DNA of 64,000 bases from Candidatus Obscuribacterales bacterium (lineage in GTDB: Bacteria; Cyanobacteriota; Vampirovibrionia; Obscuribacterales; Obscuribacteraceae): contig CBDDIJ010000002.1 in assembly GCA_965228855.1 (NCBI GenBank), forward strand, positions 768,001 to 832,000, given 5' to 3'. The notes beneath the pieces were generated by a model. That model had not been told where the DNA came from, made no database searches, and saw only the letters and a list, made by a program, of their open reading frames with translations. A program made the position numbers and the translations under genes. Of the stretch, positions 6,521 to 63,276 are shown one piece after another (the stretch's first letter is position 1; every line of letters starts with the position of its first letter).

Positions 6521-6708
6521 GAGGAATTCTATTCTTTCTACTACATCCTTCGTATTTTTTCTACTATATTCTATCAAATACATTCCCAACGTAATAGTAG
6601 AACCTGTGGACGTTTCGACTACTTCCTCACTCAGTCAAATCTCGTTTGGCTACGGGAGAGCGACGGATTTTCGAAAATCCGGCATCGCACCGTAGATAGT
6701 GTGTTAGG

Positions 6709-6714
6709 TGTCAA
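6709..6714 (-). promoter_or_regulatory. -35 box TTGACA at the IS downstream end (half of the junction promoter)
   Basis: In the circular form it lies 17 nt from TACGTT (7942-7947). Confidence 0.8.
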
Positions 6715-7673
6715 GCCAGAGTGCTGTTAAACCTGGAATCGAATGGTTGTTTCGAGCGATATACAGCGACCATCATACGGAGAAGTTTGCGTGAGGCGGC
6801 ACAAACAATTACTTTTCTGTTTTTTCCCTTTGCTGCCAGTCGTTTAGCGAATTCAGCCACTGGCGGATTAAACCGAGTGGCGGTAAGGGCGGCCATGTAC
6901 AACATGCTGCGGATCACTGGATTTCCCATCTTCGAAATTCTGGAACGTCCTCGGACTGAAGAACCGGACTCACGGATCATGGGATTCAGACCACAGAATG
7001 CTTCGATCTGGCGCAAGCTCGTAAACGAGTCCATCATCGACAGTTCTGAGAGAAACGTGAATGCTGTTCTCCAGCCGACGCCCTTAATCGTCTGGAGTAA
7101 TTTAGCGTTGCTTTTCAAAGCAGGATTCTCGGAGACCAGCGTCTTCGCCAGCTTTTCCAGTGTTTGAATTTCGTTGGTAATGAACTTCAACATACGCATC
7201 TGAGAGTCTAAAGCGCGCTGGTCCAGGCGTCCCGATTTCATTCGATTTGTGACTTGGGTTTTGGTTTTCTTTAGCGCAGCGAGCTCTCTACAAATGTCTC
7301 TCAGGGAGCGAATGTCAGGATCCATCGGAGACCAAGGAAGGGGCTCCATTTTAAAACAAAAGTCGGCGATGATTTCCGCATCGATTGCGTCGGTTTTTGA
7401 ACGTCTAAATTGGCTCTTGCCGAAGGCGTGTATCAGCGCTGGATTTACCACGCTGACTCGATAGCCAAGTTTGTGTAGAAACTCCGCAAGGGGCTCCCAG
7501 AGCTTCCCCGTAGCTTCCATGCAAAAGTGAACATCCTTACCGGATGCTTGAATCCATTTGACTATTCTCTTGAACCCAGCTGGGTTATTGCTGACGTGCA
7601 GCTTCGAATTCTTCCTGTCCTGGCGATGGCAGTCTAACGTCTCCTTCGATACGTCGATTCCAACAAAGATCAT
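6711..7673 (-). CDS. IS110-family DEDD recombinase/transposase
   Basis: GIDVSK, MEATG, KTDAIDA (DEDD); C-terminal IKGVG, GLNP..RESGSS, ISKMGN..IRSMLY; RBS AGGAGG. Confidence 0.96.
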   Translation of the reverse strand: MIFVGIDVSKETLDCHRQDRKNSKLHVSNNPAGFKRIVKWIQASGKDVHFCMEATGKLWEPLAEFLHKLGYRVSVVNPALIHAFGKSQFRRSKTDAIDAEIIADFCFKMEPLPWSPMDPDIRSLRDICRELAALKKTKTQVTNRMKSGRLDQRALDSQMRMLKFITNEIQTLEKLAKTLVSENPALKSNAKLLQTIKGVGWRTAFTFLSELSMMDSFTSLRQIEAFCGLNPMIRESGSSVRGRSRISKMGNPVIRSMLYMAALTATRFNPPVAEFAKRLAAKGKNRKVIVCAASRKLLRMMVAVYRSKQPFDSRFNSTLA

Positions 7674-7714
7674 TGCTCCTACCTCCTGTTGCTGGTTCGC
7701 TTGGACGCGGATAG

Positions 7715-7895
7715 AATCTTGTCAGGGCGAGCCTTGTTTACACGTGCTAAATCGGTCAGGATTTGCTGTAGATAGTGTTCAGCCTTAGAGGACAAGACAG
7801 GAGCGGAAGTCCGAAATCTACGCCTCTGACTTTCTAGCCGGAGACAAAATACTGGTTTCTTCCGCTCCTCTATCCTCGCGTCCTCGGATAGCCTT
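7715..7895 (-). ncRNA. IS110 bridge RNA (5' hairpin, target-binding loop, donor-binding loop); ends approximate
   Basis: Stems at 7870-7875/7886-7891, 7799-7809/7859-7869 (11 bp perfect) and 7717-7723/7791-7797. Guides ATTTTGTCT, CGTAG, ACACTATCT and ACAAG match the target and donor. Confidence 0.88.
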
Positions 7896-7941
7896 GCCGA
7901 CTGCACGCTCCTGGTCAACAGCAACGTACCAGTCAACATCT

Positions 7942-7949
7942 AACGTACA
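7942..7949 (-). promoter_or_regulatory. -10 box (TG-TACGTT) at the IS upstream end (half of the junction promoter)
   Basis: TAnnnT directly after the CT core, upstream of the bridge RNA. Confidence 0.75.
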
Positions 7950-8052
7950 AGACAAAAACCAACCGTCAAAAAACGCAGATCCGCGAAACGCCCAACTATC
8001 GAATCTTTTCACCAAAGTGCATCTAGTACCCCATATAGTAGCAAGGGCTGAG

Positions 8053-8089
8053 AAAAGACGAGGGGGCGCATGGGTAGCGACTCCTCGTC
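8053..8089 (-). terminator. Rho-independent terminator
   Basis: GACGAGG...CCTCGTC stem with a U-run on the minus strand, after the gene ending at 8105. Confidence 0.65.
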
Positions 8090-8104
8090 CTAAAGTGAAG
8101 CGGT

Positions 8105-8719: not shown

Positions 8720-8724
8720 GGCTG

Positions 8725-10652: not shown

Positions 10653-11518
10653 TCGTTTGTTTCCTTTCCGCTCTTAATCTGTGTCTTGAACGCGTCGAGG
10701 ACGGTCATCTCTCAGATTACCCGAAGGCAATCAAAGATTTGCAAAAACGAGATAGGCGGGGTTTAGAAGTCTTGAGACACAAAGATATAAGAGCGTAAGA
10801 ACTGTGCGACTTTAGAGCAACAGAGACCTCCGATTCCCACTTGAAAAGCCATTTGGTTCAAAACCGTTCACGCCGGCCGTCATGCCCGGAAACAAGGTCT
10901 TTGTTTCTGTTTCAGGCGCTCTGCGCGAATTAGCGCTAGGAATATTACGCGCGATTAACTCGGAAGCAACTAGCCTCGCTAGCGGACGTCTCCTCAAGGC
11001 TATGACACTTGCTAGATTAACCTGCGCTAACCTCGCAAAGCATTTCCGCGCGGAATTAATCTGTCCTTTGCTTGTTCAGGAACTAAATATTCAAAGGCTT
11101 AACCTCGAAAGCTTTCCTAAACGCTCAATGAGTAGGTGTTTCGGGCGCGTGGTTATTTTATTAAACGCATTTGATTTTTGATACATAAGACCCCTAGGTT
11201 GAAAAGTATCATCGCGTTTCAATTTCACTCAGGAATTTCCAAACCAACCCACACCCGCAACTGTAAGCCTGGTTTCGAGCTACTCGAATTGCGCATCTGC
11301 GTAAACCAGCATGTACGTCCGTGAGTTGCCTGGCTGTTTCTGCGTGAACGATGTTCGTTCGGTGGGATGGGTCCTGTCGCACGTCGCCTCTCGAAGTCGT
11401 TTCGATTGGCGGTTCTTACCCATGCGCGTGAAACCGGTTGCTTCAGCTTCCGGGAGATTCGCGTGCGTTTTTTAACCCGTGGACGCAATCGCGCCACACA
11501 AACACAAAGGTGATTACC

Positions 11519-12559
11519 ATGGCTATGACTCGCACTCTCGACGGTTTCGTTCCGGCTTACCTGCTCCAGCAGGCCGCCATCCTGAACCCCAACAACACCT
11601 CGCTGATCGACTCGATCGGCATCACCCAGCGCCTCTCCATCGCTGGTCGCACTCCCCTGCATCCGGCTCTGCGCCTGGCTGTTCTGGCTCCCGGCCAGGG
11701 CGACCGCCGCATCTTCGACTGCAAGGGCCTGGAGCGTCTCCCGGGCGACAAGGCTCGTCACGAGGGCGACGGCGAATACGCCGCTTTCCCGCTCGTCAAC
11801 GACGCCTACCAGTTCCACGGTGACGTTCGCCGCTTCCTGCTCGAGGTCCTCAAGCGCAACTCGCTCGACGGCAAGGGTCTCGACCTGATCGGCAGCTGCA
11901 ACTACGGCAAGGGCTACAACAACGCGTTCTTCAACCAGCGCCAGATGGTCTACGGCAACGGTGACGGCGTCATCTTCGCCAAGTTCATCATCCGCTCGGT
12001 CATCGGTCACGAGATGGCGCACGGCGTGACGCACCACACCTCCGGCCTGGAATACCAGGACGAGAGCGGTGCGCTCAACGAGCACTTCTCGGACGTCATC
12101 GGCGTTCTGGTCGACCAGTTCTGCGACAACGTCACCTCGGCCGCGCACCACTGGCTGGTCGGCCCGGGCCTCTTCACCGACCAGGTGAAGGGCAAGGCGC
12201 TGCGCAGCATGATCGAGCCGGGCACCGCCTACGACGATCCGAAGCTCGGCAAGGACCGTCAGCCGGCGCACATGAAGGACAAGTTCGAGGGCTGGGCCGA
12301 CAACGGCGGCGTGCACATCAACTCGGGCATCCCGAACCGCGCCTTCGCACTGTTCGCCAAGGCCGTCGGCGGCTACGCTTTCGAGCGCCCGCTCGCGATC
12401 TGGTACGCCACCAACTGCGGCGAAGACCGTGTCGGCGCCAACGCTTCCTTCCAGGACTTCGCGGACAAGACCATGGTGCACTGCGCCACGATCGCTCCCC
12501 GCCAGAAGAACAACCTGAAGGAAGCCTGGGGTGAAGTCGGCATCACCGTCGCCGGCTAA
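11519..12559 (+). CDS. M4-family metallopeptidase, protealysin-like
   Basis: YNNAFFN, HEMAHGV, ESGALNEHFSD, DNGGVHINSGIPN; short propeptide with FVPAYLL and no signal peptide. Confidence 0.93.
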   Translation: MAMTRTLDGFVPAYLLQQAAILNPNNTSLIDSIGITQRLSIAGRTPLHPALRLAVLAPGQGDRRIFDCKGLERLPGDKARHEGDGEYAAFPLVNDAYQFHGDVRRFLLEVLKRNSLDGKGLDLIGSCNYGKGYNNAFFNQRQMVYGNGDGVIFAKFIIRSVIGHEMAHGVTHHTSGLEYQDESGALNEHFSDVIGVLVDQFCDNVTSAAHHWLVGPGLFTDQVKGKALRSMIEPGTAYDDPKLGKDRQPAHMKDKFEGWADNGGVHINSGIPNRAFALFAKAVGGYAFERPLAIWYATNCGEDRVGANASFQDFADKTMVHCATIAPRQKNNLKEAWGEVGITVAG

Positions 12560-12628: not shown

Positions 12629-12781
12629 CTACTATAGAATACAGTCTAAGCATATCATCCAAAAGCCCCGCCCAGTGATGGTTTAAGCCCCTCCAGACCC
12701 AAGTACTCTGCGCCAAAAATCTGATTTGTCTATCCACCAATGACGCAATTGCGAAATTCCGTCGCTCTCCGATAGACAGAC
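12629..12781. repeat. Copy E of the dispersed element (right end not recognisable)
   Basis: CTACTA at 12629; core TGTCTATC...GACG-N14-CGTC...GATAGACA at 12727-12778. Confidence 0.7.
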
Positions 12782-14727: not shown

Positions 14728-14965
14728 CTACTATACGCAGGCGTGATTCACCCTTCACCGAAAGGACGAAGTCAGCGGGGTTTCAACTGTTTTCGCTTCG
14801 TAGGTGGTCAGCAAAAACAAGGGTTTGGCTACGACAAAGCGACGGTTTCTTCGAATTTCGTCTACGTGTCGTAGACACGATGCGTCCTCTCCACTTCCAG
14901 AACAGACTAAAAGCTCGCTCCTGAAACCCTTTTGAGTAATTCAGTATCCCGATACTATCTAGTAG
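14728..14965. repeat. Copy B of the dispersed element (238 bp)
   Basis: Left end CTACTA-N8-CGTGAT; core 14823-14877; right end ATCCCGATACTATCTAGTAG (inverted terminal motif). Confidence 0.8.
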
Positions 14966-23207: not shown

Positions 23208-24449
23208 CTACTTCGCTTGAACCGGCATCAGCAGATATTTGTATTGCTCGTCACCAACGCCCTTAAGAATGAGCGGCTTCAATGAACCGGTCATCTCCAG
23301 GCGAATCTCATTGACGCTCAATCTCTGAAGCACATCGAGAATGTAGCGCACGTTGACAGCGACATCAAGAGGCTGACCTTCGAACTTCACGGAAACCTCT
23401 TCCTGAGCGCGTCCTACGTCAGGAGTGTTGGCGGTGATTTGAAGGTTCTCGTCCTCGAAATGCATTTTCACAAGGTGAGTGCGATCGTCGGACATGACCG
23501 ATACACGCTCGATTGCGCGGACCAGCTCTTCACGATTGAAGTGTGCACAATGTTTGAATTCTGTAGGAAACAGTTCCTGATACCGCGGATATTCCCCTGA
23601 AATCAGGCGTGTCGAGAGGAAATGACTTTCGGTTTCGAACACGATTTGACCATCTGCCAAACCAATTCTCACTTCACCAGGAGTAAATTTGTCTGCGCTC
23701 TTCGGCTCATCGGAAGCCGATTTATCGTTCTTCGCGCTGGCGTCGGAACCATCCATCAACTTGACGATTTCGTTGCAAGCTTTAGCCGGAATGATGGCGC
23801 GGAGCATTCCACCTTTTTCAAGAGTCGCTGTTGCAGCCTTGCCTTCCGTTTCCTTATCGCCCTCGGTCTTCCCTGCTTGCGCAACGAGAGCGGTGAGTTC
23901 TTCTCTTCTGTGAGCCAAACGGCTGCCATCGGTCGCGGTGCACTCGAAATTGCCATCAGCGAGGAGAATGTACACACCACCGAGAATGCTGCTCGCATCA
24001 TATCCGGCAGCGGCGAAAGCGGTTTGAGCGATTGATTTTTTGAGAACCATCGCGGGCATGAGAACGGAGCTTTCCGGGCGGGCATCCGTCACTTTGGGAA
24101 ACTCGGCTGCCGGCAAACCGGTGATGTTGAATTTGGAGCGTTTGCAGGTGACCGCGACATCACTGTTTTCAACGTTCACTTGAAACGAAACCAATTCATT
24201 CGGAAGCTTGGAAACGATCTCAAGCAGTTTCTTACCGGGCAACGTGATTGCACCGGCTGTGTGAACGATGGCAGAAACCTTGGTCTCGATACATAGATCC
24301 AAATCAGTGGCTTGAAACTTGATTTGAGTTTCACCGTTCGATTCGATAAGCACATTGCTCAAGATTGGCTGAACAACTCTTGTTGCCAGAGCGCTTGTCA
24401 CGTCTCTCAATGCACGAACTAGAGTGTCCTTCTGGACTGAAAAGTGCAT
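23208..24449 (-). CDS. dnaN: DNA polymerase III beta clamp
   Basis: QPILSNVLI, ATDLD, ATDGSRL, RLISGEYPRY, YLLMPV; downstream of dnaA. Confidence 0.97.
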   Translation of the reverse strand: MHFSVQKDTLVRALRDVTSALATRVVQPILSNVLIESNGETQIKFQATDLDLCIETKVSAIVHTAGAITLPGKKLLEIVSKLPNELVSFQVNVENSDVAVTCKRSKFNITGLPAAEFPKVTDARPESSVLMPAMVLKKSIAQTAFAAAGYDASSILGGVYILLADGNFECTATDGSRLAHRREELTALVAQAGKTEGDKETEGKAATATLEKGGMLRAIIPAKACNEIVKLMDGSDASAKNDKSASDEPKSADKFTPGEVRIGLADGQIVFETESHFLSTRLISGEYPRYQELFPTEFKHCAHFNREELVRAIERVSVMSDDRTHLVKMHFEDENLQITANTPDVGRAQEEVSVKFEGQPLDVAVNVRYILDVLQRLSVNEIRLEMTGSLKPLILKGVGDEQYKYLLMPVQAK

Positions 24450-24752
24450 ATTGCCTACCTCGCCACTTCAACTTTTTGGAACAGCCTATATGGTACAGCC
24501 CTGAAGGCTCTCGATCTTTAGTGCGGACCAATAAAACTATGTACTCTGAATTAACAAAATTGATTGAATAAGGAGTAATAGGGGAGCCGATTTTCTGTAA
24601 GTAACGCTTGAAACGCCTGCTGGTACCGGATCTGCCATGTAGGAAACTTGTAGGCGGAAAATACAGGGGATGACAAAACTAACTCGAAATTGAAATTACT
24701 GACTTTCGGCCTACAAACCTGCAACAGGTTTTCTACAAGTTGCGCACAGGGG
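24450..24752. other. Putative replication origin oriC (dnaA-dnaN intergenic region)
   Basis: DnaA-box-like 9-mers with 11-bp spacing, a GC-rich spacer, DnaA-trio-like repeats at 24567-24581 and an AT-rich flank. Confidence 0.75.
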
Positions 24753-26474
24753 CTAATTGCCCAACTGGCGCTTGATTTGAGAAACAACTGCCGCCACTGC
24801 CGGATCTCCGACGAGTAGCTCCTTTACCTTATTGTCTGCATATATAGCGGATGTGTGTTTGCGATTTCCGAATGCCTGTCCGATTCTTGGAAAGCTCAAA
24901 CTCATCAAGTCATGCGCCAGGTGCATGGCGATGTGGCGAGGAGTCGTCAGGTCTCCGGCTCTACTCTTGCCTTTTAGATCAACCGGGTCGAGTTTGTAAT
25001 GCTCGGCAACCGCCTTGATAATCGTCTCGACCGTTAAGGATGGCTTGGAAACAGGCGTTCCGTGTGGAGTCAGCAAGGTGTGGAGAGAATGTTGATCGAC
25101 TTTTTGTCCGGTCAGGTTTGCATATGCGTTGACCCGTATAAGCGCACCTTCAAGTTCTCTAATATTGGTAGTGAATAAACTAGCGATGTGGTTTAGCGCC
25201 GAATCATCAATGACGATTCCGTCGAGGTCGCACTTCTTGCGAAGGATCGCCAGACGAGTTTCGTAATCCGGCGCTTGAATGTCGGATATCAGCCCCCATT
25301 CGAATCGGCTGCGTAAGCGCTCCTCCAGGCGTGAGAACGCCCTGGGAGGACGGTCTGAGGTCAGGATTATCTGCTTGCCCGCATCTCGCAGAGCATTGAA
25401 GGTGTGGAAGAACTCTTCCTGGGTCGATTCCTTGCCTTCGATAAACTGAATGTCGTCGATTAGCAGGACATCGTTGTATCTGTATCGCTTGCGGAACTCG
25501 CCCGTCGACTTGTCCTTAATAGAGTTGATCAGATCGTTGGTGAATCGCTCACAAGTCAAATATCGAATTTGAGCGTTTGGATTGTTCTCCAGAATCGCGT
25601 GACCGATCGCTTGCATCAAGTGTGTTTTGCCGAGTCCGACGCCGCCGTAAATGAACAGGGGGTTGTAGTTGTTGCCTGGATTTTGCGCTACCGCGAGAGC
25701 GGCTGAGTGGCAGAAACTGTTGTTTGAACCGACTACAAAGGTTGAAAACGTGTACTTGGGATTTAAACCTGAGCGCGTGAGATCGATCGGTCGTGATGGT
25801 CGTGGAACAGGATTCGCGGGCAATCTACCCATCTGCGGAGACGCGCCGGTTCTTGCCGCCTGCAAATCCTGTTGCTGAAACCCAGGCATAGAGCCGAAAC
25901 CGTTTTGACCGTGGTTGTTTTGCGGTATTGAAACGTTTCCACTTGCTTGTGCCTGCGGCACTGTATATGGTGTCGCTGGCACAGCAGTCGGTTTAAACAA
26001 CTCCTGCTGAGAATAGGCTTGAGAAGGGGTGTTTAAAGTGGGAGAGAACGCCGTCGGTGATTGCGCGAAAGTAGAATTATGCGATGTTGAAATCTTCGGT
26101 CCGGTCGAATAGGGTGATGCACCAGCCTGCGGGAGAGCGCTTGGCGCCGATGTTTCATTGGACAGATCCGCAAACGTTCCTGTGTAAACGGCCGGCGCGA
26201 CGGAAGAGTCCACTACGAAGTCGACCTTGACCGGAACTCCGGTAACTTTCTCAAGAGCTTCCTGGATCTGCTGTTTATGACGAAGAAGCAAAGTCTGATA
26301 GAACGAGTTCACGACTGCTACGACAGCCAAGCCGTTAGTGAACTTAGTCAAGTCCACCGCTGTCTGTAGAACCGCGAACACTCCCGGAGAAGCAGTTGAC
26401 GATAATTGTTTGAGGGCGTCAGCCCATATTTGCGGAACTGGTTTTAAATATCGGACATCGTCACTTGTGTGCAT
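24753..26474 (-). CDS. dnaA: Chromosomal replication initiator DnaA (start uncertain; ORF open to 26609)
   Basis: LNPKYTF, YNPLFIYGGVGLGKTHL, LLIDDIQF, QEEFFHTFN, NIRELEGAL. Confidence 0.97.
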   Translation of the reverse strand: MHTSDDVRYLKPVPQIWADALKQLSSTASPGVFAVLQTAVDLTKFTNGLAVVAVVNSFYQTLLLRHKQQIQEALEKVTGVPVKVDFVVDSSVAPAVYTGTFADLSNETSAPSALPQAGASPYSTGPKISTSHNSTFAQSPTAFSPTLNTPSQAYSQQELFKPTAVPATPYTVPQAQASGNVSIPQNNHGQNGFGSMPGFQQQDLQAARTGASPQMGRLPANPVPRPSRPIDLTRSGLNPKYTFSTFVVGSNNSFCHSAALAVAQNPGNNYNPLFIYGGVGLGKTHLMQAIGHAILENNPNAQIRYLTCERFTNDLINSIKDKSTGEFRKRYRYNDVLLIDDIQFIEGKESTQEEFFHTFNALRDAGKQIILTSDRPPRAFSRLEERLRSRFEWGLISDIQAPDYETRLAILRKKCDLDGIVIDDSALNHIASLFTTNIRELEGALIRVNAYANLTGQKVDQHSLHTLLTPHGTPVSKPSLTVETIIKAVAEHYKLDPVDLKGKSRAGDLTTPRHIAMHLAHDLMSLSFPRIGQAFGNRKHTSAIYADNKVKELLVGDPAVAAVVSQIKRQLGN

Positions 26475-26914
26475 CTTCTTGAAAGACCTGGTTTCTGTGC
26501 TGCTTTTAACGCGATCCGTTTCAAAACGAATCAATAAAAACTGCTGGCGCTTCGGTGACCCGTCGATACTTCGAGAAAAATTACAGGACGGCTGATTGCC
26601 GATGATCACTTGATTGCCGATGATACGGAAATCAAATGTACCCTGAAAAATTTCTCAAAGAGTCGATCAACCGGAAGCGTGCCCGCAAGAAAATTCGCAA
26701 GCTTCAAGAGACGACGATCCTCATGCCGAGCTAGAAAACAATACCGACACAAAAGAATTCGTGCCGGCTCTAATTCAGCCTAAGGACTGTAAATTTTTCA
26801 TCGGTCGGGCTTGTGACCGACGCCAACTTTATTGCGAAAAATGATAGCATGACGTTTCATCAGAAGACATGCCAACATTTTTAACATTGGCGCTGTGCCA
26901 GGAGACTTTGGCTC

Positions 26915-27049
26915 ATGAAACGTACATTGCGTGGATCAAAACTGAAAGCGAAGAAAGACAGCGGTTTTCTCAGCCGCATGTCTTCCAAGTCCGGAAGAAA
27001 AGTACTCAAAAAACGTCGCCAGAAAGGGCGTTATCGTTTAGCCGTTTAG
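26915..27049 (+). CDS. rpmH: 50S ribosomal protein bL34 (below the ORF-track cutoff)
   Basis: MKRTLRGSKLKAKKDSGFLSRMSSKSGRKVLKKRRQKGRYRLAV; RBS AGGAG; conserved position between dnaA and rnpA. Confidence 0.95.
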   Translation: MKRTLRGSKLKAKKDSGFLSRMSSKSGRKVLKKRRQKGRYRLAV

Positions 27050-27060
27050 GCTGACTGACG

Positions 27061-35490: not shown

Positions 35491-38400
35491 GTGTCAAAGA
35501 CTCGTCGCCCAGACATTCGTTCGCGTAGGATGCCCCCACAACCGACAGATTGTCGAGATGCCATGCACTGGTTCGTCGACAACTTCGCTTTGTACACCGG
35601 ATCAGTTCGTGGACTTTTCGTAAGCGACTTCAGCGCAGAGTATGACGCTTACATCGAGTCTTCCGTCATAAATCTTCGAGCCCGCGGCATCGAGCCGTTT
35701 CTCACTGTTGGTGATCAAATCGTCGCTCAAGCAGAGGCACTATGGGCGATGGCAACGTCTGGCACGCCATTCAATCAACCCCATGTCACTAACTTCGAAC
35801 TGGACATGCTGCGCGCGGAAGTCGCAATCATCAAGGACCTCGAGGCGCCTGTGACGCCGTCGCAGCTCTGGTATCTCTACCACTACATAATTTATCCGCG
35901 AGCTCTGTTCAACAAGGCCACCGTCATTACAACCTCTCTGGGGCTGGATGAGTTCGTCGCATACGGCTCGGAATGCGAAGATTTCGAATACGCCGGACGC
36001 AAACTGTCATGGGAAAAACTGATGTGGCTGGTCGAGGCGACGATGATCGATCTCTACCAATTCCGTCAGGTAAAAACCGATGGGCATCCGCCTATGCTCA
36101 AGGCTGAATACAACCTTTTCAATGCCATGAATGAGCGGGGCTTACCAGTGACTGCTCAACAAGTCCTCGGCGATTACATGCTGGATATGTCCATTGCCGA
36201 TCGTGATAATCGGCTTGCCATTGAGATTGACGTTCTTGCGTCATTAGACCCTAGTGTGTCCGGCAGCGGCGATGCGAAGAAAAACCTCGTACTTTTGAGT
36301 GACGGCTGGAAAATTCTTCGGTTTACAACGGCCGAAATTCTTGGAGATTTGACGTCTTGCGTTGATGCGGTAGAGCAGGTGTGGACGGCTGGTCGAAAGA
36401 AGTCCGCTGTGGGCAGACTGATGTCCGGGCGCGAACAACCGAAAATTCACGAGTTGCCGGTTGACGACGACTCCCAAAAGCTTGCCATCACCCATGGTGC
36501 GGGACCGGTCGCTGTAACCGGCGGGGCTGGAACCGGAAAGACCAGTACCGTTGCTCACCGTGTTGCTTACCTGCTTGCACAAGGCGTATGCCCGGAGCGG
36601 ATTCTGGTGTTTTCGCATTCGGAGGAGACAGTTGCTCAGCTCAAGAGGAAAGTGGAGGTTCTTTCGGACGGTCAAACGGTCCAGCGCATTGGTTTTTCCG
36701 ACTGGAAAGACCTCGGACTGAGAATCCTCAAGGAGAACGCCGCGGCTGTGAAACGCAAACCGCCGTTAAAACTTGAAGCTACTCCGCACCGAGTTCTTCA
36801 GCGCGTTTTGAAGAAAGAGCTTAAGGATATCGACCCACTGCAGTTGGAGATGATGGATGCTGAGGTCGATGAAGCCACCATTGGACAGCTCATCTCGCTC
36901 TACAAGGCTAATTTAATTACCCCTGAGCGCATTAAGGAAAGAGCCACTACCGACGCGGAAGACCTTGTCGCAAAGCTATTTTCTGCATACGAGGAGGCTC
37001 TCAAGAAAAGCAACAAAGTCGATCCGGATGACACAATTTCTCTATGTGCCCAGCTGCTTGCCGACGATCCTGAGGTGCGTGCGAAGTATCAACACAAGTA
37101 TGAGTTTGTGATCGTCGACGAATACCAAGAGTGCACCGCAGCTGCCGATTTAATGGCAAGACTGCTTGCCTTTCCCCAGGAAAACTTGTTCCTGGTCGGC
37201 GATGAGGACGAGTGTGTGACCGAGAACAAGGGCGCCATGCCGCGCTATCTCGCGGACACTTCGATTAGAATGCCGAATGCGCGTTGTTATATTCTCGATA
37301 AGAACTGGCGCAGTCACCCGGCGATTGTCGATCACTCGCGAAGTTTGGCAGCGGCATTGGGTTTTCACGGAATCGTCAAAGATATGTTTCCGGGCTACGG
37401 TACGGCTGCGACCAGTGCGGTGATCGGACCGCAGCAATGCAAAAGCGAGGAGGCCGAAGCCGACTGGGTTGCTAACGAAGTGGCAATTCTCATCGAAAGC
37501 GGAAAGTCTCTCAACGATATAGTCGTACTCTGGCGAAATCAGCGCTATGCCTCGCTTCTGGAAGCGGCGCTGTTTAAAAAGAACATCAAATGTGTTTCTG
37601 CAACCGCCGGCAGTGAGTCCGTACCTGACGAAGTCGGTGACGTGATGGCGTTTTTACGGCTTGTTATGGATCCGGATGGACCGAAAGCCAGAGCCTCTTT
37701 TGAACGCTTTTGCCAGCTCAAGTCGCGCGAAATGGATCAAAAACTTTCCCGGCTGTCCAATACGATCGCTTCATTTGCCGAAGCAAACAATCTGTCGTTT
37801 CTCAAAGCCATAGAGATCTACCATGACGCCACTGCAGATAGTTCATGCGAAGACCTTGCGCAGCTAGTTCGTATTGTGCGAACGATGAATCAAGAAGGGC
37901 TTCCGCCGGCGCAGACGATAGGTCTGCTTAAACGTACCCAGAAGCTGAACGAAATTTATGCTGCGGTGACAGTGCCACCAGGAGTGGTGTATGAGCCGAT
38001 GCGCAAAGTTGAGCAACTTGAAGAAGAAGCTAAGGCTTATGGCACCGTCAGAGAGTTTGTGAAAGCGAAACAGGAGTTCCTGGAGAACAAGGACCCTTCC
38101 ATTGATGAGTCGTGTATCCAGGTCAAGAGTTTCGAAGATTCAAAAGGATGTGAGTATCCGATTGCGTTTCTAACAGGTATGGCGGAGGGATTGTGTCCTT
38201 CGGATCAGGCGGTGAATGTCGAAGAGGAGCGGCGGCTCTGTTATGTAGCGATGACTCGCGCGAAGGAGTTGCTTTATATCTCTTATCCCGCGACGTACGA
38301 GGAGAAGCCGGTACCGCCCTCACCCTTCCTGGTGGAGGCGCGTCTGTTGCCTATAAACGTTTATCGTAAGGCTGTTAGTCTAATTCAACATGAACTTCCC

Positions 38401-41175
38401 GCGAAGCCGAATGCTCAGGCTGAGCCGGCTGCGCCAGGGTCAGGTATGCTGACGCCGATTATGACTGGCAGACCGGAAAGAGTTCGACCGGGAGCAAACC
38501 GAGAAAGAAATCGTGAAGGTGCTCCCGCTGCAAGTCCAGGACAGCAACAGCCGGGTCAGCAACCCGGTGGTACTGCCGGTAGTGCTCCCCCGTCTGGTCA
38601 GGGCGGCGTGCGCCAACAGCGAGCCGGAAACCGGCCCGGTAGTGATGTCGCAGATCTTTTGGGCGGGCGGATCACTGCACCCGGAAGTGCTGCTCCACCC
38701 GGCGGCAGTGCTCAGCCGATTATACGACCCGCCGGACACAGCGCGAATCTGGCAAGGGGTGCTGCAGGAGACAGTACGATTCAGAACCCGTCGGCACCTG
38801 GACAAAATCAGATGCCTCAGAGTCCCGCCGGTCAGACTACTCCTGGTCAACAGGCCAACCCATTTGTCGGTTTCGATGCGGACCATTCCAGAGTTACTGA
38901 TGAAGCTCGACAGCGGGCGGAAAATGAAACCCGATTGAAAGCTCAGTACGAAGCCCACATCGTAGCTCAACAGCAAGCGGCCGCCCAGGCGGAACTCGAG
39001 GCTCAGAAAAGGGCAGAGCAGGACGCATACCTCAGGATGCGTCATGAGCAGCAAATGCGCGAACAGCAGGAAGCGCTGATACGCGCTCAGCAGGAGGAGT
39101 CGCTCAAACGAGCAATGGAGGAGGCTGCTCGAAAAGAGCAGCATGAGGCGCGGATGAAGGCCGACCATGAGGTCGAGATTCGCAAACAGCAGGAAGCGGA
39201 ACTCCAGGCTCAGCGCGAAGCGGCCATCCTCGCTCAGCAGGAGGCAGAGCAACGAGCTCGTCAGGAGGCGGCACAGCGAGCACAGGAGGAGGCCGCTGCC
39301 AGGGCTCAGCATGATGCCATGCTCCTTTTGATACAGCAGGAAGCGGAGCGGAAAGCGCAAGAGGAAGCTGCTCTGCTTGCCCAACAAGAAGCGGAGGCAC
39401 AGGCAGAGGCGCTTCGTGAAGCCGAGCTTCACGCTCAGCGCCTGGCGGAAGAGCAGGCGCAACGCGAAGCTGCATTGAGAGCGCAGCAGGAGGCAGAGCG
39501 GCTGGTGCGCGAAGAGGCTGCTCGTCAGGCTCAGGCGCAGGAAGCCGCATTGCAAGCCCAGAGGGAGGCTGCCCTGAATGCGCAGCAGCAAGCACAGTTT
39601 AATGCACAGCAGGATGCGGCCCTGCGCGCCCAGCAGCATGCCGCTTTGCAGGCGCAGCAGCAACAGCAGCAACAGCAGCAACAGCAGCAAGCCGAATTTG
39701 GAGCGGTTCAACAATCTGCAATGACGCCACAGCAGCAAGCAGAGTATTACGCTCAGCAAGAGGCTGCGCTGAAAGCTCAGCGCCAAGCCGAGTTCAACGC
39801 CAGGATTGAGGCATCGTTAGCGGCGCAGCAGGAAGCGGAATACAGAGCACAACAGCAGGAAGCTGCTCTGCGAGCCCAGAATCAGCCAGTTCCGCAAGCG
39901 TCTGATCTCGATGCACAAAGAGCTCAACAAGAAGCTGCGGCTCGGGCGCAACAAGAGGCGCTCGCTCGCGTTCAGGAGAAAGCCGCTCAGCGAGCTATGA
40001 TCGATCTGGAACTCAGAATGTCTCAAGAGGCAGCGATGAGAAGTGAGCAGCAGGCTTCGATTCAGAATCCGTCTAGCGCAACTCCGACAAATTCCACTTC
40101 TGACTTGACTAAACTCGTGGACGAACAGTTCAATTTTGCAGGTGTGCCGATCTCGCAAATTCAGCCGCCGGGAAGTGATTCTGAACTAAAGCAAGAGGTA
40201 GAACCAGATCGATCCAAGCAAGAAGAAGAGGTCCGTTCAATCAAAGAAAGTTTGGACGAACTGAGTCCTGCCGAGCGAAGTAAACAGCAAGACGCACTTC
40301 GCAAAAAGGCCCGAGAGAAGCTCTCTAAGGGACGGAAGAAGAAAGGCGGCGAAACTGATGCTGTGCCGTCGGCAGAGCCAATTTTAGAAGTCGCACCAGC
40401 AGCGGTGTCACAAGAACCGGTTGCGGCTCCTGGCGAAGTATTAGCTGAACCAGTTTTAGCCGCTCCATCTCACGAAGTGTCTCCGGAACCGACTCCAGCA
40501 CCTCCGCCGCGTGAGCCTTCTGTGGAGCCAGTGGCCTCAAGTCCTCCTCTCCAACCTTCTCCGGAACCAGTTTCAGAACCTCCGGAAACGCCAGTGCATT
40601 TAATGCCAACGTCTCCACAGCCTGCAATGCCGGCAGGATTGCCGCCGGCTGCCGCTTCGTCAACTGGCTTCGAGCAGTCGAATCCATACTCGAACGCACC
40701 CAATCCGTATGGTCAGACTCCGGATCCATACGGACGATCGTTACCGCAAACACCTGCTCAGCAGTCAGGTTCTCAGCATCCACTCGACTCATTCTCCAGT
40801 TCTCGCGCCCAGCAACCGGGTCCGTATGGGCATCAGGAAGGGCCACCGCCGGCGGTAGCGCCACCAGCGCCGGAGTTTAAATCACCACCTTATACGCCCG
40901 CGCCTGCTCAACCGCTCCTTGAGGCTGCGCCACAAATAACGCCGGTTGTGCCAAACCAGTCGAGCTTGCCTTTTTGTCCTCAATGCTCGAATCCACTGGA
41001 GCCGAATGCGCGATTCTGCGGCGAGTGCGGCCTGCACCTCAGTGTTCAGCCACAAGTGGCGGCTCCAGTTGCCATACCGGCTCCTGCGCCGGTCGGAATC
41101 TCCTGTCCCAGTTGCGCTGAGCCTTTAGAGCCAAATGCCAGATTCTGCGGAGAATGCGGTCACTCACTTGTTTGA
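35491..41175 (+). CDS. Giant UvrD/PcrA-like helicase fusion (DUF559-like nuclease, SF1 helicase, Q/A/E coiled coil, Pro-rich linker, two zinc ribbons)
   Basis: GGAGTGKT, VIVDEYQE, KNWRS, EEERRLCYVAMTRAK; LAIEID...GWKILRF; two CPxC...PNARFCGECG. Confidence 0.85.
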   Translation: MSKTRRPDIRSRRMPPQPTDCRDAMHWFVDNFALYTGSVRGLFVSDFSAEYDAYIESSVINLRARGIEPFLTVGDQIVAQAEALWAMATSGTPFNQPHVTNFELDMLRAEVAIIKDLEAPVTPSQLWYLYHYIIYPRALFNKATVITTSLGLDEFVAYGSECEDFEYAGRKLSWEKLMWLVEATMIDLYQFRQVKTDGHPPMLKAEYNLFNAMNERGLPVTAQQVLGDYMLDMSIADRDNRLAIEIDVLASLDPSVSGSGDAKKNLVLLSDGWKILRFTTAEILGDLTSCVDAVEQVWTAGRKKSAVGRLMSGREQPKIHELPVDDDSQKLAITHGAGPVAVTGGAGTGKTSTVAHRVAYLLAQGVCPERILVFSHSEETVAQLKRKVEVLSDGQTVQRIGFSDWKDLGLRILKENAAAVKRKPPLKLEATPHRVLQRVLKKELKDIDPLQLEMMDAEVDEATIGQLISLYKANLITPERIKERATTDAEDLVAKLFSAYEEALKKSNKVDPDDTISLCAQLLADDPEVRAKYQHKYEFVIVDEYQECTAAADLMARLLAFPQENLFLVGDEDECVTENKGAMPRYLADTSIRMPNARCYILDKNWRSHPAIVDHSRSLAAALGFHGIVKDMFPGYGTAATSAVIGPQQCKSEEAEADWVANEVAILIESGKSLNDIVVLWRNQRYASLLEAALFKKNIKCVSATAGSESVPDEVGDVMAFLRLVMDPDGPKARASFERFCQLKSREMDQKLSRLSNTIASFAEANNLSFLKAIEIYHDATADSSCEDLAQLVRIVRTMNQEGLPPAQTIGLLKRTQKLNEIYAAVTVPPGVVYEPMRKVEQLEEEAKAYGTVREFVKAKQEFLENKDPSIDESCIQVKSFEDSKGCEYPIAFLTGMAEGLCPSDQAVNVEEERRLCYVAMTRAKELLYISYPATYEEKPVPPSPFLVEARLLPINVYRKAVSLIQHELPAKPNAQAEPAAPGSGMLTPIMTGRPERVRPGANRERNREGAPAASPGQQQPGQQPGGTAGSAPPSGQGGVRQQRAGNRPGSDVADLLGGRITAPGSAAPPGGSAQPIIRPAGHSANLARGAAGDSTIQNPSAPGQNQMPQSPAGQTTPGQQANPFVGFDADHSRVTDEARQRAENETRLKAQYEAHIVAQQQAAAQAELEAQKRAEQDAYLRMRHEQQMREQQEALIRAQQEESLKRAMEEAARKEQHEARMKADHEVEIRKQQEAELQAQREAAILAQQEAEQRARQEAAQRAQEEAAARAQHDAMLLLIQQEAERKAQEEAALLAQQEAEAQAEALREAELHAQRLAEEQAQREAALRAQQEAERLVREEAARQAQAQEAALQAQREAALNAQQQAQFNAQQDAALRAQQHAALQAQQQQQQQQQQQQAEFGAVQQSAMTPQQQAEYYAQQEAALKAQRQAEFNARIEASLAAQQEAEYRAQQQEAALRAQNQPVPQASDLDAQRAQQEAAARAQQEALARVQEKAAQRAMIDLELRMSQEAAMRSEQQASIQNPSSATPTNSTSDLTKLVDEQFNFAGVPISQIQPPGSDSELKQEVEPDRSKQEEEVRSIKESLDELSPAERSKQQDALRKKAREKLSKGRKKKGGETDAVPSAEPILEVAPAAVSQEPVAAPGEVLAEPVLAAPSHEVSPEPTPAPPPREPSVEPVASSPPLQPSPEPVSEPPETPVHLMPTSPQPAMPAGLPPAAASSTGFEQSNPYSNAPNPYGQTPDPYGRSLPQTPAQQSGSQHPLDSFSSSRAQQPGPYGHQEGPPPAVAPPAPEFKSPPYTPAPAQPLLEAAPQITPVVPNQSSLPFCPQCSNPLEPNARFCGECGLHLSVQPQVAAPVAIPAPAPVGISCPSCAEPLEPNARFCGECGHSLV

Positions 41176-60960: not shown

Positions 60961-61007
60961 GCTTCACTGTTTGAGATTGACAGAGTAGTTGGATAAACAA
61001 TCTCCGG

Positions 61008-61046
61008 CTGGACGGAAGGTGACCACAAGTCACCTTCCTCCAGTTT
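61008..61046 (+). terminator. Rho-independent terminator
   Basis: CTGGA.GGAAGGTGAC-CACAA-GTCACCTTCC.TCCAG followed by TTT. Confidence 0.75.
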
Positions 61047-61059
61047 GTCTAAACCTTCC

Positions 61060-61246
61060 CTACTAGATCGTATCGTGATACAAAGCTTTCAAGATGTTGT
61101 GAGAATTGCTACTAGATCGTATCGTGATGCAAAGCTTTCAAGACAGCCTCTCCGTAGCAGTTTCCAGATTTGTGCGTTTGTGGTTTGGTGTTTTTGGCAA
61201 CGAGAGAGCGACGATTTATCCAAATTCCGTCAATGCCACGTAGACA
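61060..61246. repeat. Copy C of the dispersed element with duplicated left terminal motif
   Basis: 35-bp direct repeat at 61060-61094 and 61109-61143 (1 mismatch); core 61192-61246. Confidence 0.8.
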
Positions 61247-61703
61247 GTTTGGTTGACCCTGGAGTCTGAAACCCCCGAAGTCTCTCTGTGCAGGGTTTTA
61301 CTGAGACGGACTTTACGGAGAGCTGGATTAGACGGTGGGTGGCTGAGGGCGCCGTGCGTGAGCTTCGCATCATAAATTCTGCGTGACTGCACCGTTACGG
61401 CTTGCGCTAAGGAACTGGAAACGCCGTGCGGACGGCGATGTTACGGGGTTTTAAGTGTTTCATTTCGAAATGTATTGGTGATTACTAGCGAGGCCAACTG
61501 ATAAACAGAGATGTCAACATTCTCGTCTCTGCCTCAGGAGTTCATCGTCACGCGTTCCTGAAACTCCCTCTCATTCGAAGCTTTTCGTGTCTCTTCATGG
61601 AGTCGCGTCATGGTTCGTCTGGCTGGAGAACGAGAACGGCCGCCTTTCCGCGGTCGTCGTTGAATCCACTCACGCATTGAACACAACCAAATCAGGAGTT
61701 CAA

Positions 61704-62900
61704 ATGACCAAGAAGATCGTGGTTCTCGCTGCTGCGCTGGCGGCGGCTTTGTCGTTCGCCACCTCTCAGGCGGCGTTCGCTCAGGCTCAGGTTCAAACGC
61801 AAGCAGCGGCCCTGCCGGTCGTGACGCCGCAGACGGTCGATGCAGAGCTCGCCGGCGATAAGCCGGTTTTCATCATCCTGACCGGCGCGGACTGCAACGT
61901 CTGCACCGAGATTGCGAAGCTCGCAGCGAAGTACCCGCAGATGAAGTTCCTCCAGGGAAAGGCTAGCGACTTCGATTCTCCGGATGTCGTCCACGTCGGA
62001 ATCCTCCCGCTCGCCATCGTCAGCGTCCCCGGCGTCGGCCCGACGTTCCAGCTGGAGAAGTTCGCCCCCGCCGACCTCGACAAGTTCATCGCGGAACGTG
62101 TGACTGTCGCGATGCGTCAGACTGCTGCTTCCAACAAGGTCTCAGCGGTGCGCGAGAACATCAAGACGACTTCGCAGCCGTTCAACGAAGACCTCGCGAA
62201 GCTGAACGCCGAGTACAAAGAGCTGTGGAAGCCCTACGCTGATCGCATCGATGCGGAGCGCCTCAAGGCCGCGAAGGCGACGGCACCGTTCGAAGCACAA
62301 CTCACCGCTCTCTCGAAGAAGGCGAACGACGAACGCGATCCGCTCGTCGCCAAGCTTCGCGAAATCGAGGGTCGAGCCCGCGCTGCCGTGGAGGCGGATT
62401 CGGAGATCGTGGCGCACACGAAGACGATCGGCGACCTGCGCAAGTCCTTTGCCGATGCGGAAGCCGAACTTGAGCAGCTCAAGGAGAAGGGCGTCGACGG
62501 CAAAGATGCCGCCTTCAAGGCGGTGACCGACAGGATGAGTGCGCTCGACAAGTCATTCGGCGACACGATTGCGGCTGGTCGCGCTCGTACCGTCGAGGTC
62601 ATGAAGCCGTTCGCGGAAGAGGCCAAGCCGGTTGCCGCGCAGCTCGAAGCCGTCGAAAAGAAGTTTGGTCCTCAGATCGCCGACCTCTATGCCAAGATCG
62701 AGCAGGCATCGAAGCCGTTCGCGGACGAAGCCAGCAAGATCTCTGCCGAAGGGAAGCTCATGCTCAAGCCGCACTTCGACGAGGTGGACACCGTCAAGGC
62801 CAACAAGAAGCGCGCGCTCAAGCCGCTGTTCGACGAGCTGAAGACAGCAATGGGCGAACTGGAGAAGGTTCTCGACGAGACCGCCGCGCCGGCGAAGTAA
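61704..62900 (+). CDS. Secreted protein: thioredoxin-like CxxC domain plus long helical-repeat coiled coil
   Basis: RBS AGGAG; signal peptide; KPVFIILTGADCNVC; repeated [KAQ]P[FY] helices. Confidence 0.8.
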   Translation: MTKKIVVLAAALAAALSFATSQAAFAQAQVQTQAAALPVVTPQTVDAELAGDKPVFIILTGADCNVCTEIAKLAAKYPQMKFLQGKASDFDSPDVVHVGILPLAIVSVPGVGPTFQLEKFAPADLDKFIAERVTVAMRQTAASNKVSAVRENIKTTSQPFNEDLAKLNAEYKELWKPYADRIDAERLKAAKATAPFEAQLTALSKKANDERDPLVAKLREIEGRARAAVEADSEIVAHTKTIGDLRKSFADAEAELEQLKEKGVDGKDAAFKAVTDRMSALDKSFGDTIAAGRARTVEVMKPFAEEAKPVAAQLEAVEKKFGPQIADLYAKIEQASKPFADEASKISAEGKLMLKPHFDEVDTVKANKKRALKPLFDELKTAMGELEKVLDETAAPAK

Positions 62901-62927
62901 TCGAGCAGCCCAAACATCAGTAGTGGA

Positions 62928-62961
62928 GCGGATGGCGAGAGATAATCTCGCCGTCCGTTTT
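62928..62961 (+). terminator. Rho-independent terminator
   Basis: GCGGATGGCGAGA...TCTCGCCGTCCGT followed by TTT. Confidence 0.75.
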
Positions 62962-62974
62962 CTTGGATCTTTTG

Positions 62975-63276
62975 CTACTAGATCGTATCGTGATGGTTTC
63001 GTTTAAAAAACCTGATAGCGCCAGTTGTTTCGTGGGACGTGATGTTTAGAGCGATGTTTTTGGCAACGAGAGAGCGACGATTTCTCGTGATTCCGTCATA
63101 GCCAGATAGACAGCCCAGAGCTATCGGAAAGACGTGTGTCTCTAGATGGTCTGTAGGGCATGTTCTAGAGGATTCGTCCTCACTGTGCGAGATAGTAGCG
63201 AGGTTTGGGCTTAGCCTCACTGGATAGTAGTGGGGTTTGGACTTAGTCTCACTGTGCAAGATGGTAGCGGGGGTTT
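62975..63276. repeat. Copy D of the dispersed element (62975-63198) with right terminal motif tandemly reiterated to 63276
   Basis: CTACTAGATCGTATCGTGAT at 62975; core 63058-63112; about three tandem CTCACTG...GATRGTAG units at 63178-63276. Confidence 0.8.

Follow-up and report, generated by a model that had tools for sequence, protein, structure and literature searches.

The window, a 64-kb stretch of DNA from an Obscuribacterales bacterium, includes the dnaN and dnaA genes (23208..26609, minus strand), and together with the GC-skew minimum at about C2:788 kb, this indicates that it contains the replication origin. Five copies of a 52-bp palindrome (hereafter, the core), to which no strand is assigned, are scattered across the window. 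The initial annotation had described these as a dispersed repeat aligned without gaps, and both the positions and the alignment hold. The copies are located at 6647..6695 and 7952..7954 (the left 49 bp and the last 3 bp of a core split in its fourth box by an IS110 element, with an intact ortholog in the sister genome G007 at C3:189600), 12727..12778 (one-armed), 14826..14877 (two-armed), 61195..61246 (one-armed) and 63061..63112 (two-armed, between convergent genes). With a symmetric matrix, 210 copies, all ungapped, score above 20 bits in the assembly of 8.2 Mb, and neither of two block-shuffled genomes has a match above 12 bits, so that the proposed comparison with shuffled DNA places the repeat well above background. 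The core consists of two 17-bp dyads, 33 bp apart, which together comprise four boxes. Half-site matches outside the full copies number only 24, and most of these are truncated or IS-split cores.

The palindrome, initially taken to be the unit, is real but constitutes only a part of a larger, origin-clustered element with a phased end site. In the full unit, the core is followed by a spacer of 69, 80, 92 or 102 bp and then by an end site, TAC-N11-GTAG (TATAGTAG); the resulting three-site element spans about 140-155 bp, and the spacer changes in steps of about 11 bp. The end site is present in 236 of the 420 core flanks, at offsets of 68-70, 78-83, 88-95 and 101-105, and identical offsets recur in 58 distinct cores from metagenome contigs. 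There are 118 one-armed, 59 two-armed and 33 armless cores. The two-armed copies are 223-268 bp long, with inverted ends of only 8 bp, and the left and right arms of one copy are unrelated in sequence. In the window, end sites (read outward) are found at 6561..6568 (minus strand; offset 80 from the core at 6647, with a further CTACTA at 6538-6543), in the right arm of the split core at 8034..8041 (plus strand; offset 81 with the IS left out), at 12629..12636 (minus strand; offset 92), facing the M4 peptidase gene (11438-12559) at its 3' end, at 14728..14735 (minus strand; offset 92) and at 62975..62982 (minus strand; offset 80), whereas the TCTAGTAG variant is present at 14958..14965 (plus strand; offset 82) and the GATAGTAG variant at 63191..63198 (plus strand; offset 80). 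The remaining minus-strand locus, 61060..61116, combines an end site at 61109-61116 (offset 80) with a 49-bp local duplication that carries a second end site (61060-61067); this locus lies behind a hairpin after a fadB-like gene, and the duplication is absent from a related strain.

The fixed spacing with variable filler had been interpreted as either a protein-bound site or a hairpin; the former fits the data, whereas the latter fits poorly. The arms of one core pair at 17.1 of 26 positions compared with 16.1±0.16 for randomly matched halves, an excess that is real but small and concentrated in a few columns, so that the compensatory change reported for the copy at 12.7 kb is not a general feature. 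Individual copies pair at 10-22 of 24 positions, and the REP-like motifs correspond to the internal boxes. Among 60 arms, the mean fold z-scores were -0.3 and -0.1 and the covariation diagonal was absent, an Rfam search of the window yielded no match, and of four window copies that were folded, two were no better than shuffles. With about one pair above chance, an unfolded arm and an empty Rfam search, a hairpin or RNA function was rejected, and the repeat shows none of the fold, covariation or Rfam match of a structured RNA family. Because the filler pairs barely above chance and the arm lacks a fold, the element looks like a protein site on double-stranded DNA. In 64 alignments of orthologous copies, divergence is 0-5% in TAGTAG and 0-5% at the G/C positions of the boxes, compared with 15-19% in most 5-nt bins of the arm and 26-28% in the first 10 nt outside; fourfold sites differ by 12% between G000 and G007.

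The genomic distribution of the element is sharply bounded, with 174 of the 210 copies located in an origin-containing stretch of 1.05 Mb, or 13% of the chromosome. These sharp edges, the comparable off-centre position of the repeats relative to dnaN in G454, a genome from another genus of the same family, and the failure to find a perfect match to canonical parS are compatible with a centromere-like or macrodomain array that would condense or anchor the origin, a role comparable to that of the ram or matS sites, with the link to terminators reflecting only where copies are tolerated. Such an organiser nevertheless appears improbable: anchoring requires neither a fixed distance of 14-16 nt to hairpins nor an orientation toward the more biased gene, the core is absent from most congeners, and the region is also the location of the codon-biased genes (217 of 644 genes in the region vs 61 of 4302 elsewhere), which by itself explains the clustering. 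Symmetric jumping between chromosome arms gave no stable signal, and no canonical DnaA boxes were seen. The possibility that the element causes the high GC was rejected given that the G001 and G002 orthologs are equally biased (0.643 and 0.666 vs 0.66).

Nearly all cores (208 of 210) are intergenic, most of them located just behind gene ends, and convergent gaps are enriched: of the 157 gaps that hold a core, 67 are convergent, compared with 85 of the 495 long gaps in the region. In 90 of the 150 arms that face a gene end, a hairpin of -10 kcal/mol or lower ends within 30 nt, with a mode of 13-17 nt, compared with 10 of 67, 4 of 54 and 5 of 51 in three control classes under the same criterion. 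The end site often begins about 14 bp past such a terminator-like hairpin. Post-gene hairpins are followed by CTACTA in 80 of 225 cases in the region and in 0 of 100 and 2 of 137 in two samples from outside. At 3.79 vs 3.79 T per 8 nt, the hairpins that precede the end site are as rich in U as those beyond the region, which gives no hint that the element rescues weak terminators. At convergent one-armed loci, the arm faces the gene with the higher fourfold-site GC in 23 of 26 cases. Judging from their codon bias, the genes linked to the element are probably highly expressed; against this, the genes for ribosomal proteins show less bias and are located elsewhere in the genome.

The orientation toward the more codon-biased gene would also be expected of an activator-dependent promoter, in which the dyads would be an enhancer-like operator and TATAGT the -10 box of a sigma-70 family factor, firing head-on into the 3' ends of co-regulated genes and causing collision termination or antisense silencing. 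The spacer steps of about one helical turn, the preference for purines 5 nt (88%) and 6 nt (69%) after TATAGT, the 19 matches to sigma-70 region 2 in G000 and, among the matches listed for the family outside G000 and G007, the G that follows TAC in 44 of 74 (a hand count) are all compatible with such a promoter, and there is a precedent in converging polymerases that stop at hairpin terminators, more effectively for highly expressed pairs, as described in 10.1101/2022.10.23.513370. However, the promoter is quite unlikely, considering that there is no -35 element at the usual distance, that TATAGT shows hardly any strand bias upstream of ordinary genes (78 vs 64), that many end sites in G454 retain TAC..GTA but lack TATAGT, and that copying of the element is left unexplained. 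Furthermore, sigma-54 (PF04552) was not found in any of five genomes, G000 and G007 included, compared with 4 of 14 control genomes, and the end-site logo contains no -24/-12 box. A T7-type promoter, suggested by the likeness of the layout, was rejected because the respective polymerase domain (PF00940) is absent from G000 and G007; it is present in 9 of 104 family genomes, among which only G019 was examined for the motif.

The copying is apparent from several observations. The core and arm have been copied together to distant loci, and the most similar distant arm pairs also have a common core; the similarity stops at TAGTAG, after which identity drops to background (3.67 vs 3.83 of 12), and on the armless side it is lost about 4 nt past the core. 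One two-armed copy was found whole again at a distant locus. In addition, there are 83 local duplications with one end near the end site, most of which end 0-13 nt past TAGTAG. Array copy number varies between sister genomes, and the neighbouring genes come and go. Distant copying of the core with its arm and local duplication are the traces expected of a selfish element, so that the repeat could be a non-autonomous mobile element for which some enzyme, possibly a lost one, would bind the core, nick near TATAGTAG and copy the core and arm behind terminators, where the host tolerates them. The core sequences are lineage-specific, like those of REPINs with RAYTs as described in PMC3116915. Mobility of this kind is, on balance, unlikely. 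No target duplication is detectable at core or arm ends, one-armed copies included, although the invariant TA inside CTACTA..TAGTAG is readable as one. The duplication ends mostly scatter over 0-13 nt, and most of the filler is flank sequence that was copied and has diverged, so that the base-precise end of a rolling-circle element, such as IS91 or a Helitron, is lacking. Insertion a few bases outside the donor is ruled out at C2:732.6 kb by the unduplicated G007 allele, and the start of the duplications is not fixed to the hairpin (35 cases; rho 0.15, p 0.40). In the 400 kb that were compared, most copies occupy the same loci in G007 with the boxes held constant, and the end motif occurs without this core across the family.

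The search for a mobilising enzyme was negative as well. The initial annotation had suggested looking for a linked RAYT/HUH gene, but none was found with the Y1/RAYT profile (PF01797), which has no match in G000, G007, G006, G454 or G456 (completeness 79-95%) and is present in 27 of 104 family genomes. IS630-type DDE_3 (PF13358) was likewise found in 0 of 5 genomes. A Y2 transposase was also found in 0 of 5, but here the control genomes were silent too, which leaves this search uninformative. The serine resolvase (PF00239) was not found in G000 or G007, whereas 12 of 14 controls were positive. Tyrosine recombinases yielded 17 matches, two of them in the region, with no link to the element. A retron-type reverse transcriptase next to the array at C2:944459 was rejected as a candidate: its tail domain is present in 17 of 103 other family genomes, 11 loci of which were scanned and lack the core, and has no match in G007. 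A self-comparison of the genome shows that the only multicopy ISs are two IS110s, and no match to the core was found in viral contigs, phages or plasmids.

Comparison with related genomes shows a like layout, again around the origin, in another genus with a different core sequence. Among seven congeners, five lack the core and G006 has a single one; hence the element is dispensable within the genus. In G454, there are 14 two-dyad cores of a different sequence and a period of 33-34 (none in the control), three of which were used to write the search pattern; these exact matches are the low end of a copy-number range that reaches 210. All of them lie between 2.28 and 3.06 Mb on a contig of 5.04 Mb, which carries dnaN at 2.83 Mb, and by eye about 19-20 of the 28 flanks carry the end site. 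The hairpin link is weak in the relatives (10 of 39 vs 5 of 40 controls; 6 of 30 vs 2 of 30 in G002), and in 12 flanks from G456 and G010 the end site is not clearly visible. A pattern for the G026-type core was discarded as too loose (9 matches vs 4 in the control).

The best explanation, which we propose tentatively and at somewhat less than an even chance, is a host-bound, three-site, double-stranded element that would loop or wrap DNA at transcript ends near the origin. A host protein complex likely binds the two dyads together with the end dyad, and next to the ends of genes that are likely strongly transcribed, the bound complex would draw the DNA into a loop or wrap; the looped element might then act as a barrier to read-through and as a sink for supercoils, and breaks near the end site may drive the local duplications and the spread. 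Spread of the element by copying, in addition to the host role, is the best reading of the data. The A/T phasing in the arm peaks at 9-9.25 bp rather than at 10.5-11, which weakens a simple wrap model. As described in PMC6379681, gyrase accumulates on the downstream side of transcribed loci and at BIME-2 of E. coli, and the position of the element fits the role of a strong gyrase site of this kind. A broader scenario for the Obscuribacterales, which we regard as rather doubtful, is that a distinct set of strongly codon-biased hydrolase, salvage and stationary-phase genes occupies a megabase-size origin domain in which transcripts would be closed by a dedicated protein-DNA switch, built from tandem dyads, a loop in helical phase and, at the terminator, an end site. 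The geometry would be retained while the reader protein and the core sequence change from genus to genus, and on two occasions RNA-guided recombinases would have been retargeted to the switch.

Interspersed repeats of bacteria are generally assigned to the hairpin REPs, the MITEs or the short organiser motifs, and this previously undescribed element, of which a literature search yielded no earlier account, fits none of these classes. It resembles the E. coli REP/BIME and the Pseudomonas REPINs in being extragenic, species-restricted, present in more than 100 copies and located downstream of genes and in tandem clusters, as well as in the GTAG and CGTC motifs and in serving as an IS110 target (PMC3733652, PMC3116915, PMC6379681). 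However, a REP is a stem-loop of 20-40 bp that carries an unpaired GTAG or CGTC as a tag on one of its ends, whereas here there is a fixed-length dyad of four boxes with largely unpaired filler, a phased arm of 70-100 bp with a third site, confinement to the origin region and no Y1/RAYT in G000, G007, G454 or G456. Two-armed copies resemble IS630/Tc1 MITEs (RUP, Correia/NEMIS, ERIC) in their size and short inverted ends, which are readable as a TA duplicated inside CTAG in line with the target rule of IS630. Unlike MITEs, most armed copies are one-armed, the arms are unrelated, the ends are 8 bp rather than 15-30 bp, and a DDE_3 transposase was found in none of five genomes. Two adjoining dyads with a third one at a whole number of helical turns are also the layout of Tn3-family res sites and of enhancer-promoter pairs, but the element differs from both in the number of chromosomal copies (more than 200), in the lack of a serine resolvase and sigma-54, and in having one end tied to terminator-like hairpins. 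The recurrence of the geometry in another genus with a different sequence, the tie to transcript-end hairpins at near-base resolution and the marking of an origin region that has sharp boundaries and a codon usage of its own set the element apart. If bound by the host, it points to a so far unrecognised regulator of termination or topology in the little-studied non-photosynthetic relatives of cyanobacteria, and if selfish, to a so far unrecognised mobilising enzyme; under either reading, the motif could be used as a pull-down bait.

Judging from their sequences, the two related IS110s are passengers of the repeat, with predicted bridge RNAs directed at its conserved boxes, and all eight copies lie inside the core. 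IS110-A (6696..7951, minus strand; 1256 bp) has three identical copies in the genome, all within the repeat as expected from the initial annotation, and no flanking duplication beyond the 2-bp core; the proposed insertion point, CGTAG|ACA, is corroborated by the intact site in G007. It encodes a recombinase of 320 aa (6711..7673, minus strand) with the DEDD_Tnp_IS110 and Transposase_20 domains (PF01548 and PF02371) and a bridge RNA (7700..7890, minus strand) predicted from the fold and exact matches, with target guides at about 7850-7842 and 7824-7818 and a donor guide at about 7778-7770. The predicted target guides match the repeat arm, in agreement with the original proposal of programming against it, a logic that parallels IS621 and REP. 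Mismatches in the empty copies had been taken as a sign of guide specificity; however, the right arm of the empty copy at 14.8 kb has 3 mismatches of 14, no more than the arm that is occupied, and 43 core arms without an IS there contain the 10-nt target that the three IS110-A insertions have in common, so that the empty copies are no evidence of specificity. No IS joint was seen in the assembled contigs. Both IS110s resemble IS621 in the two protein domains, the two-loop non-coding left end with guides, the CT core, the 7-nt left guides, the junction promoter with a 17-bp spacer and the insertion into a host repeat (PMC11208160). Unlike IS621, these are two elements that target two boxes of one repeat: the proteins are 52% identical, and the predicted left-end RNAs, whose guides match target and donor around the 2-nt core, agree in the left donor guide but differ in the target guides. 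In IS110-B, a GT target core is joined to a CT donor core, and this natural pair, with one non-CT target core, bears on the programming of bridge recombinases.

The dispersed palindrome is a real element, larger than first described and undescribed within the literature covered. The initial annotation had placed five copies in the window, and both their positions and their ungapped alignment are confirmed. Training a matrix on both strands yields the consensus T-GKC-N11-GMC-N16-GKC-N11-GMC-A for the 52-bp core, which consists of two 17-bp dyads, 33 bp apart centre to centre, flanking an A/T-rich palindromic middle. The source genome (G000) contains 210 copies above 20 bits (including three split at the last box and excluding four split in mid-core), whereas two block-shuffled genomes yield none even above 12 bits. 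A stricter core pattern has 192 matches in G000 and 176 in its sister G007, whose aligned blocks are mostly 92-97% identical to those of G000; the congener G006 has one, and the remaining 58 of the 60 relatives scanned have none. Across 400 genomes of the phylum, a single one-mismatch match was found in one genome, and one control behaved likewise; metagenome contigs of a close relative carry 54 core loci. Cores of one subfamily, with the ending ATTGACA, are armless and lie in 73- or 83-bp arrays. In the open literature, with subscription journals mostly outside the scope, no such repeat was found described in this group; the repeat lists of PMC3733652 could bear on this point.

Beyond the core, most copies possess an arm, a spacer that leads to an end site. 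The sequence TATAGTAG occurs in 185 of the 420 core flanks, against 0.8 expected, and 292 times in G000 as a whole. The offset of TAGTAG from the core end is 68-70, 78-83, 88-95 or 101-105 in most of 236 flanks, and these classes step by about 11 bp. One arm is present in 118 cores, two in 59 and none in 33; arms without a core are almost never found. Given that the arm motifs C..AAA, TTT..G and TAC(G/T) are held at constant distances, the end site can be written as TAC-N11-GTAG, with a geometry equal to that of the core dyad. No fold was found for the arm, and its A/T period is 9-9.25 bp, not 10.5.

The initial annotation had allowed for either a protein-bound site or a hairpin. The element reads as double-stranded DNA, not as a hairpin: the core halves pair at 17.1 of 26 positions, slightly above the 16.1+-0.16 of shuffled partners (197 distinct cores), and pairing within single copies varies from 10 to 22 of 24 positions. 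Compared with shuffles, cores are the better folders (mean z -3.7; 40 of 60 below -2), but any palindrome is, and two of the four window copies folded are no better than chance. The compensatory change noted initially in one copy does not extend to the copies in general; the pairing excess is genuine, though it falls mainly in four columns and reflects subfamilies. The fixed dyad spacing, the turn-wise steps of the spacer, the conservation of the boxes amid fast-changing filler and the recurrence of the same geometry with other sequence suggest that a protein complex would assemble on the double-stranded element.

In 64 ortholog alignments (37 with G007 and 27 with the metagenome contigs, a few visibly misaligned), TAGTAG and the G/C boxes each diverge by 0-5% and the arm by 15-19% in most bins, a figure that would be inflated should the metagenome relative be more distant. 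Outside the element, divergence is 26-28% in the first 10 nt and 3-8% past 15 nt; fourfold sites differ by 12% between G000 and G007. Distant loci have core and arm in common, with identity ending at TAGTAG and, on the armless side, about 4 nt beyond the core. There are 83 local duplications (orthologs tallied once per genome), each a copy of 24-181 nt from an arm or core, and most of them end 0-13 nt beyond TAGTAG; since their filler is more like the outer flank (47% vs 22%), the duplication end is not base-precise. No target duplication was found at the copies, and genes have been gained and lost beside some of them. That the element is selfish and moved by some further enzyme appears rather unlikely, and this reading and that of a host loop or wrap (below) can both hold in part. 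The search for a linked RAYT/HUH gene proposed initially came back empty for Y1/RAYT in G000, a 95% complete and partly contaminated assembly, as did searches for IS630-type enzymes, sigma-54, T7-type polymerase and resolvase; Y2 gave no match either, with the control genomes silent too. The element differs in defining features from REP/REPIN, MITEs, structured RNAs, res sites and sigma-54 enhancers, and works partly like a BIME.

At one G007 locus, a PLD-like gene (L011:4196-5795) that is extended at its C terminus has 73-bp core arrays on both sides; the orthologous locus of G000 has a different element instead. A second tandem repeat, unrelated and based on TGCAAACCAATTTGCA, is found in between cores or next to them at several loci (G000 C2:218.8-219.0 kb and 318.1-318.4 kb; G007 C3 about 79.2-79.5 kb).

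Two related IS110 elements, which belong to a known kind, are the sole multicopy ISs in the G000 assembly. As anticipated from the window, where IS110-A splits a core (6647-6695+7952-7954), every copy of this IS is inside the repeat: its three identical copies all occupy the outer box. IS110-B (52% protein identity to A) has four copies in G000 (C2:197 kb, C2:988 kb, C5:861 kb and C5:1,462 kb) and one in G007 (L127), all in an inner box, so that 8 of 8 copies lie within cores. The nearest homolog of the IS carries the label Candidatus Obscuribacterales, a group to which the host probably belongs. The proposed aiming of the bridge RNA at the repeat fits both elements, whose predicted target guides each match their own box; the left ends have similar folds and matching left donor guides with different target guides. 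The pattern agrees with that of IS621 on REP in PMC11208160, according to which non-CT cores are less efficient and are aided by a longer right guide. In IS110-B, the core is GT on the target side and CT on the donor side. The end-to-end junction of IS110-A creates TTGACA-17-TACGTT. Cores contain the 10-nt common target of A 43 times and the 14-nt pattern of B 15 times; elsewhere the counts are 24 and 0. With targets recurring in this way, the emptiness of the other window copies, previously taken as consistent with guide specificity, says little about it. For another IS110, target structure is reported to provide an additional cue (10.64898/2026.03.19.712850). Directly to the left of the split copy are two tandem GntR/PLP (MocR-type) regulator genes (window 3549-6520).

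The copies are concentrated around the origin. Both dnaA and dnaN are inside the window, the skew minimum is at C2:788 kb, and 174 of the 210 copies lie within C2:70-1,125 kb, 13% of the chromosome, a stretch whose two ends are about 710 and 330 kb from the origin. A role as an origin organiser is considered very unlikely. No canonical DnaA box was seen in the gaps around dnaA (window 24450-24752 and 26610-27060); the dnaA-dnaN gap holds several repeats containing TGTAG/CTACA. GC3 is 0.62-0.74 within the repeat-rich stretch vs 0.51-0.57 elsewhere. This region has sharp edges and, by gene calls from our own codon model, very strong C-ending codon bias in 217 of 644 genes, compared with 61 of 4302 outside; the ribosomal operon (C3:2.59 Mb), far from it, is less biased. 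Orthologs in the congeners G001 and G002, which lack the core, show the same gene-specific bias, which thus is older than the element. Not ribosomal themselves, the biased genes belong for the most part to hydrolase, salvage and stationary-phase functions; in a family scan of 148 of the 157 genes with GC4 of at least 0.70 in C2:200-600 kb, about half had no family and the rest were largely peptidases, lipases, amylases, salvage enzymes, vWA/MoxR and PrkA/SpoVR.

Nearly all cores (208 of 210) lie between genes, with an excess of convergent gaps: 67 of the 157 occupied gaps vs 85 of the region's 495 long gaps. Where an arm faces a gene end, a strong hairpin ends within 30 nt in 90 of 150 cases, mostly at 13-17 nt, compared with 10/67, 4/54 and 5/51 in controls. 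Conversely, CTACTA follows the post-gene hairpin in 80 of 225 cases inside the region and in 0/100 and 2/137 of two subsamples outside. These hairpins were not found to be U-poorer than those outside the region. In 23 of 26 convergent one-armed loci, the gene towards which the arm is directed is the more biased one (p 9e-5). The element may thus, judging by its position, act at transcript ends of the biased genes. A host loop or wrap, serving as a barrier and supercoil sink by analogy with BIME-2/gyrase (PMC6379681), is a tentative reading at somewhat less than even chances; a head-on promoter (10.1101/2022.10.23.513370) seems unlikely.

The layout partly recurs elsewhere in the family. TAC-N7-TATAGTAG has 85 matches in G000, 41 in G007, 15 in G026 and 0-6 per genome in the other 101, often no higher than the backwards control. 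TAC is followed by G in 44 and by T in 19 of the 74 matches listed outside G000 and G007 (hand count; there are 63 further matches), and the TACG form is at background level in 61 genomes of the neighbouring order. Other two-dyad cores, again with a 33-bp period, are found at three loci of G454, from another genus, and four of G026 (flanks judged by eye). The G454 core pattern has 14 matches in G454, 14 in G456, 4 in G010, one each in nine others and none in the remaining 92, with a control at zero in G454, G456 and G010; the G026 core pattern is not above control. In G454, which is a single contig, all 14 cores map to 2.28-3.06 Mb, on either side of dnaN (2.83 Mb). Judged by eye, TAC-N8/N11-GTA followed by an A-tract is present in about 19-20 of their 28 flanks; no clear end site was found in 12 flanks of G456 and G010. 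The hairpin link is weak in the relatives. G002 carries REP-like hairpins of the ordinary, GTAG-tagged kind together with a RAYT-like Y1 gene (C77:65545, 86351, 89723; L049), one hairpin copy occupying a gap that carries the element in G000, and three diverged copies of a roughly 70-bp, promoter-like motif with ATAGTA/ATCGTA upstream of adjoining genes (C77:103.8-106.1 kb).

Several other features were noticed. C2:1-65 kb and C4 of G000 (GC 0.65-0.67, and 0.27-0.30 over the initial 50 kb of C4) contain no repeats, and their composition suggests contaminant or chimeric sequence. The window encodes a 1,894-aa UvrD-like helicase with a zinc-ribbon tail (35491-41175), a ClpB/ClpC-like gene is called as two adjoining frames (C2 about 345-347 kb; L113:4978-7466), and 21 predicted tRNA genes are arrayed on one strand at C3:724.5-728 kb. 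A retron-type reverse transcriptase (C2:944459-945628; L136:4459-5628) ends in a C-terminal tail of about 90 aa that lacks annotation (no Pfam match, though by eye it is WYL-like) and is present in 17 of 103 other family genomes; a second one adjoins an ATPase-like gene (C3:2800508-2801395; L137), with a similar-scoring enzyme in 8 of 8 genomes of the genus. T7-type single-subunit RNA polymerase genes are found in 9 of 104 family genomes (L225-L234), most frames being open and about 780-820 aa long.
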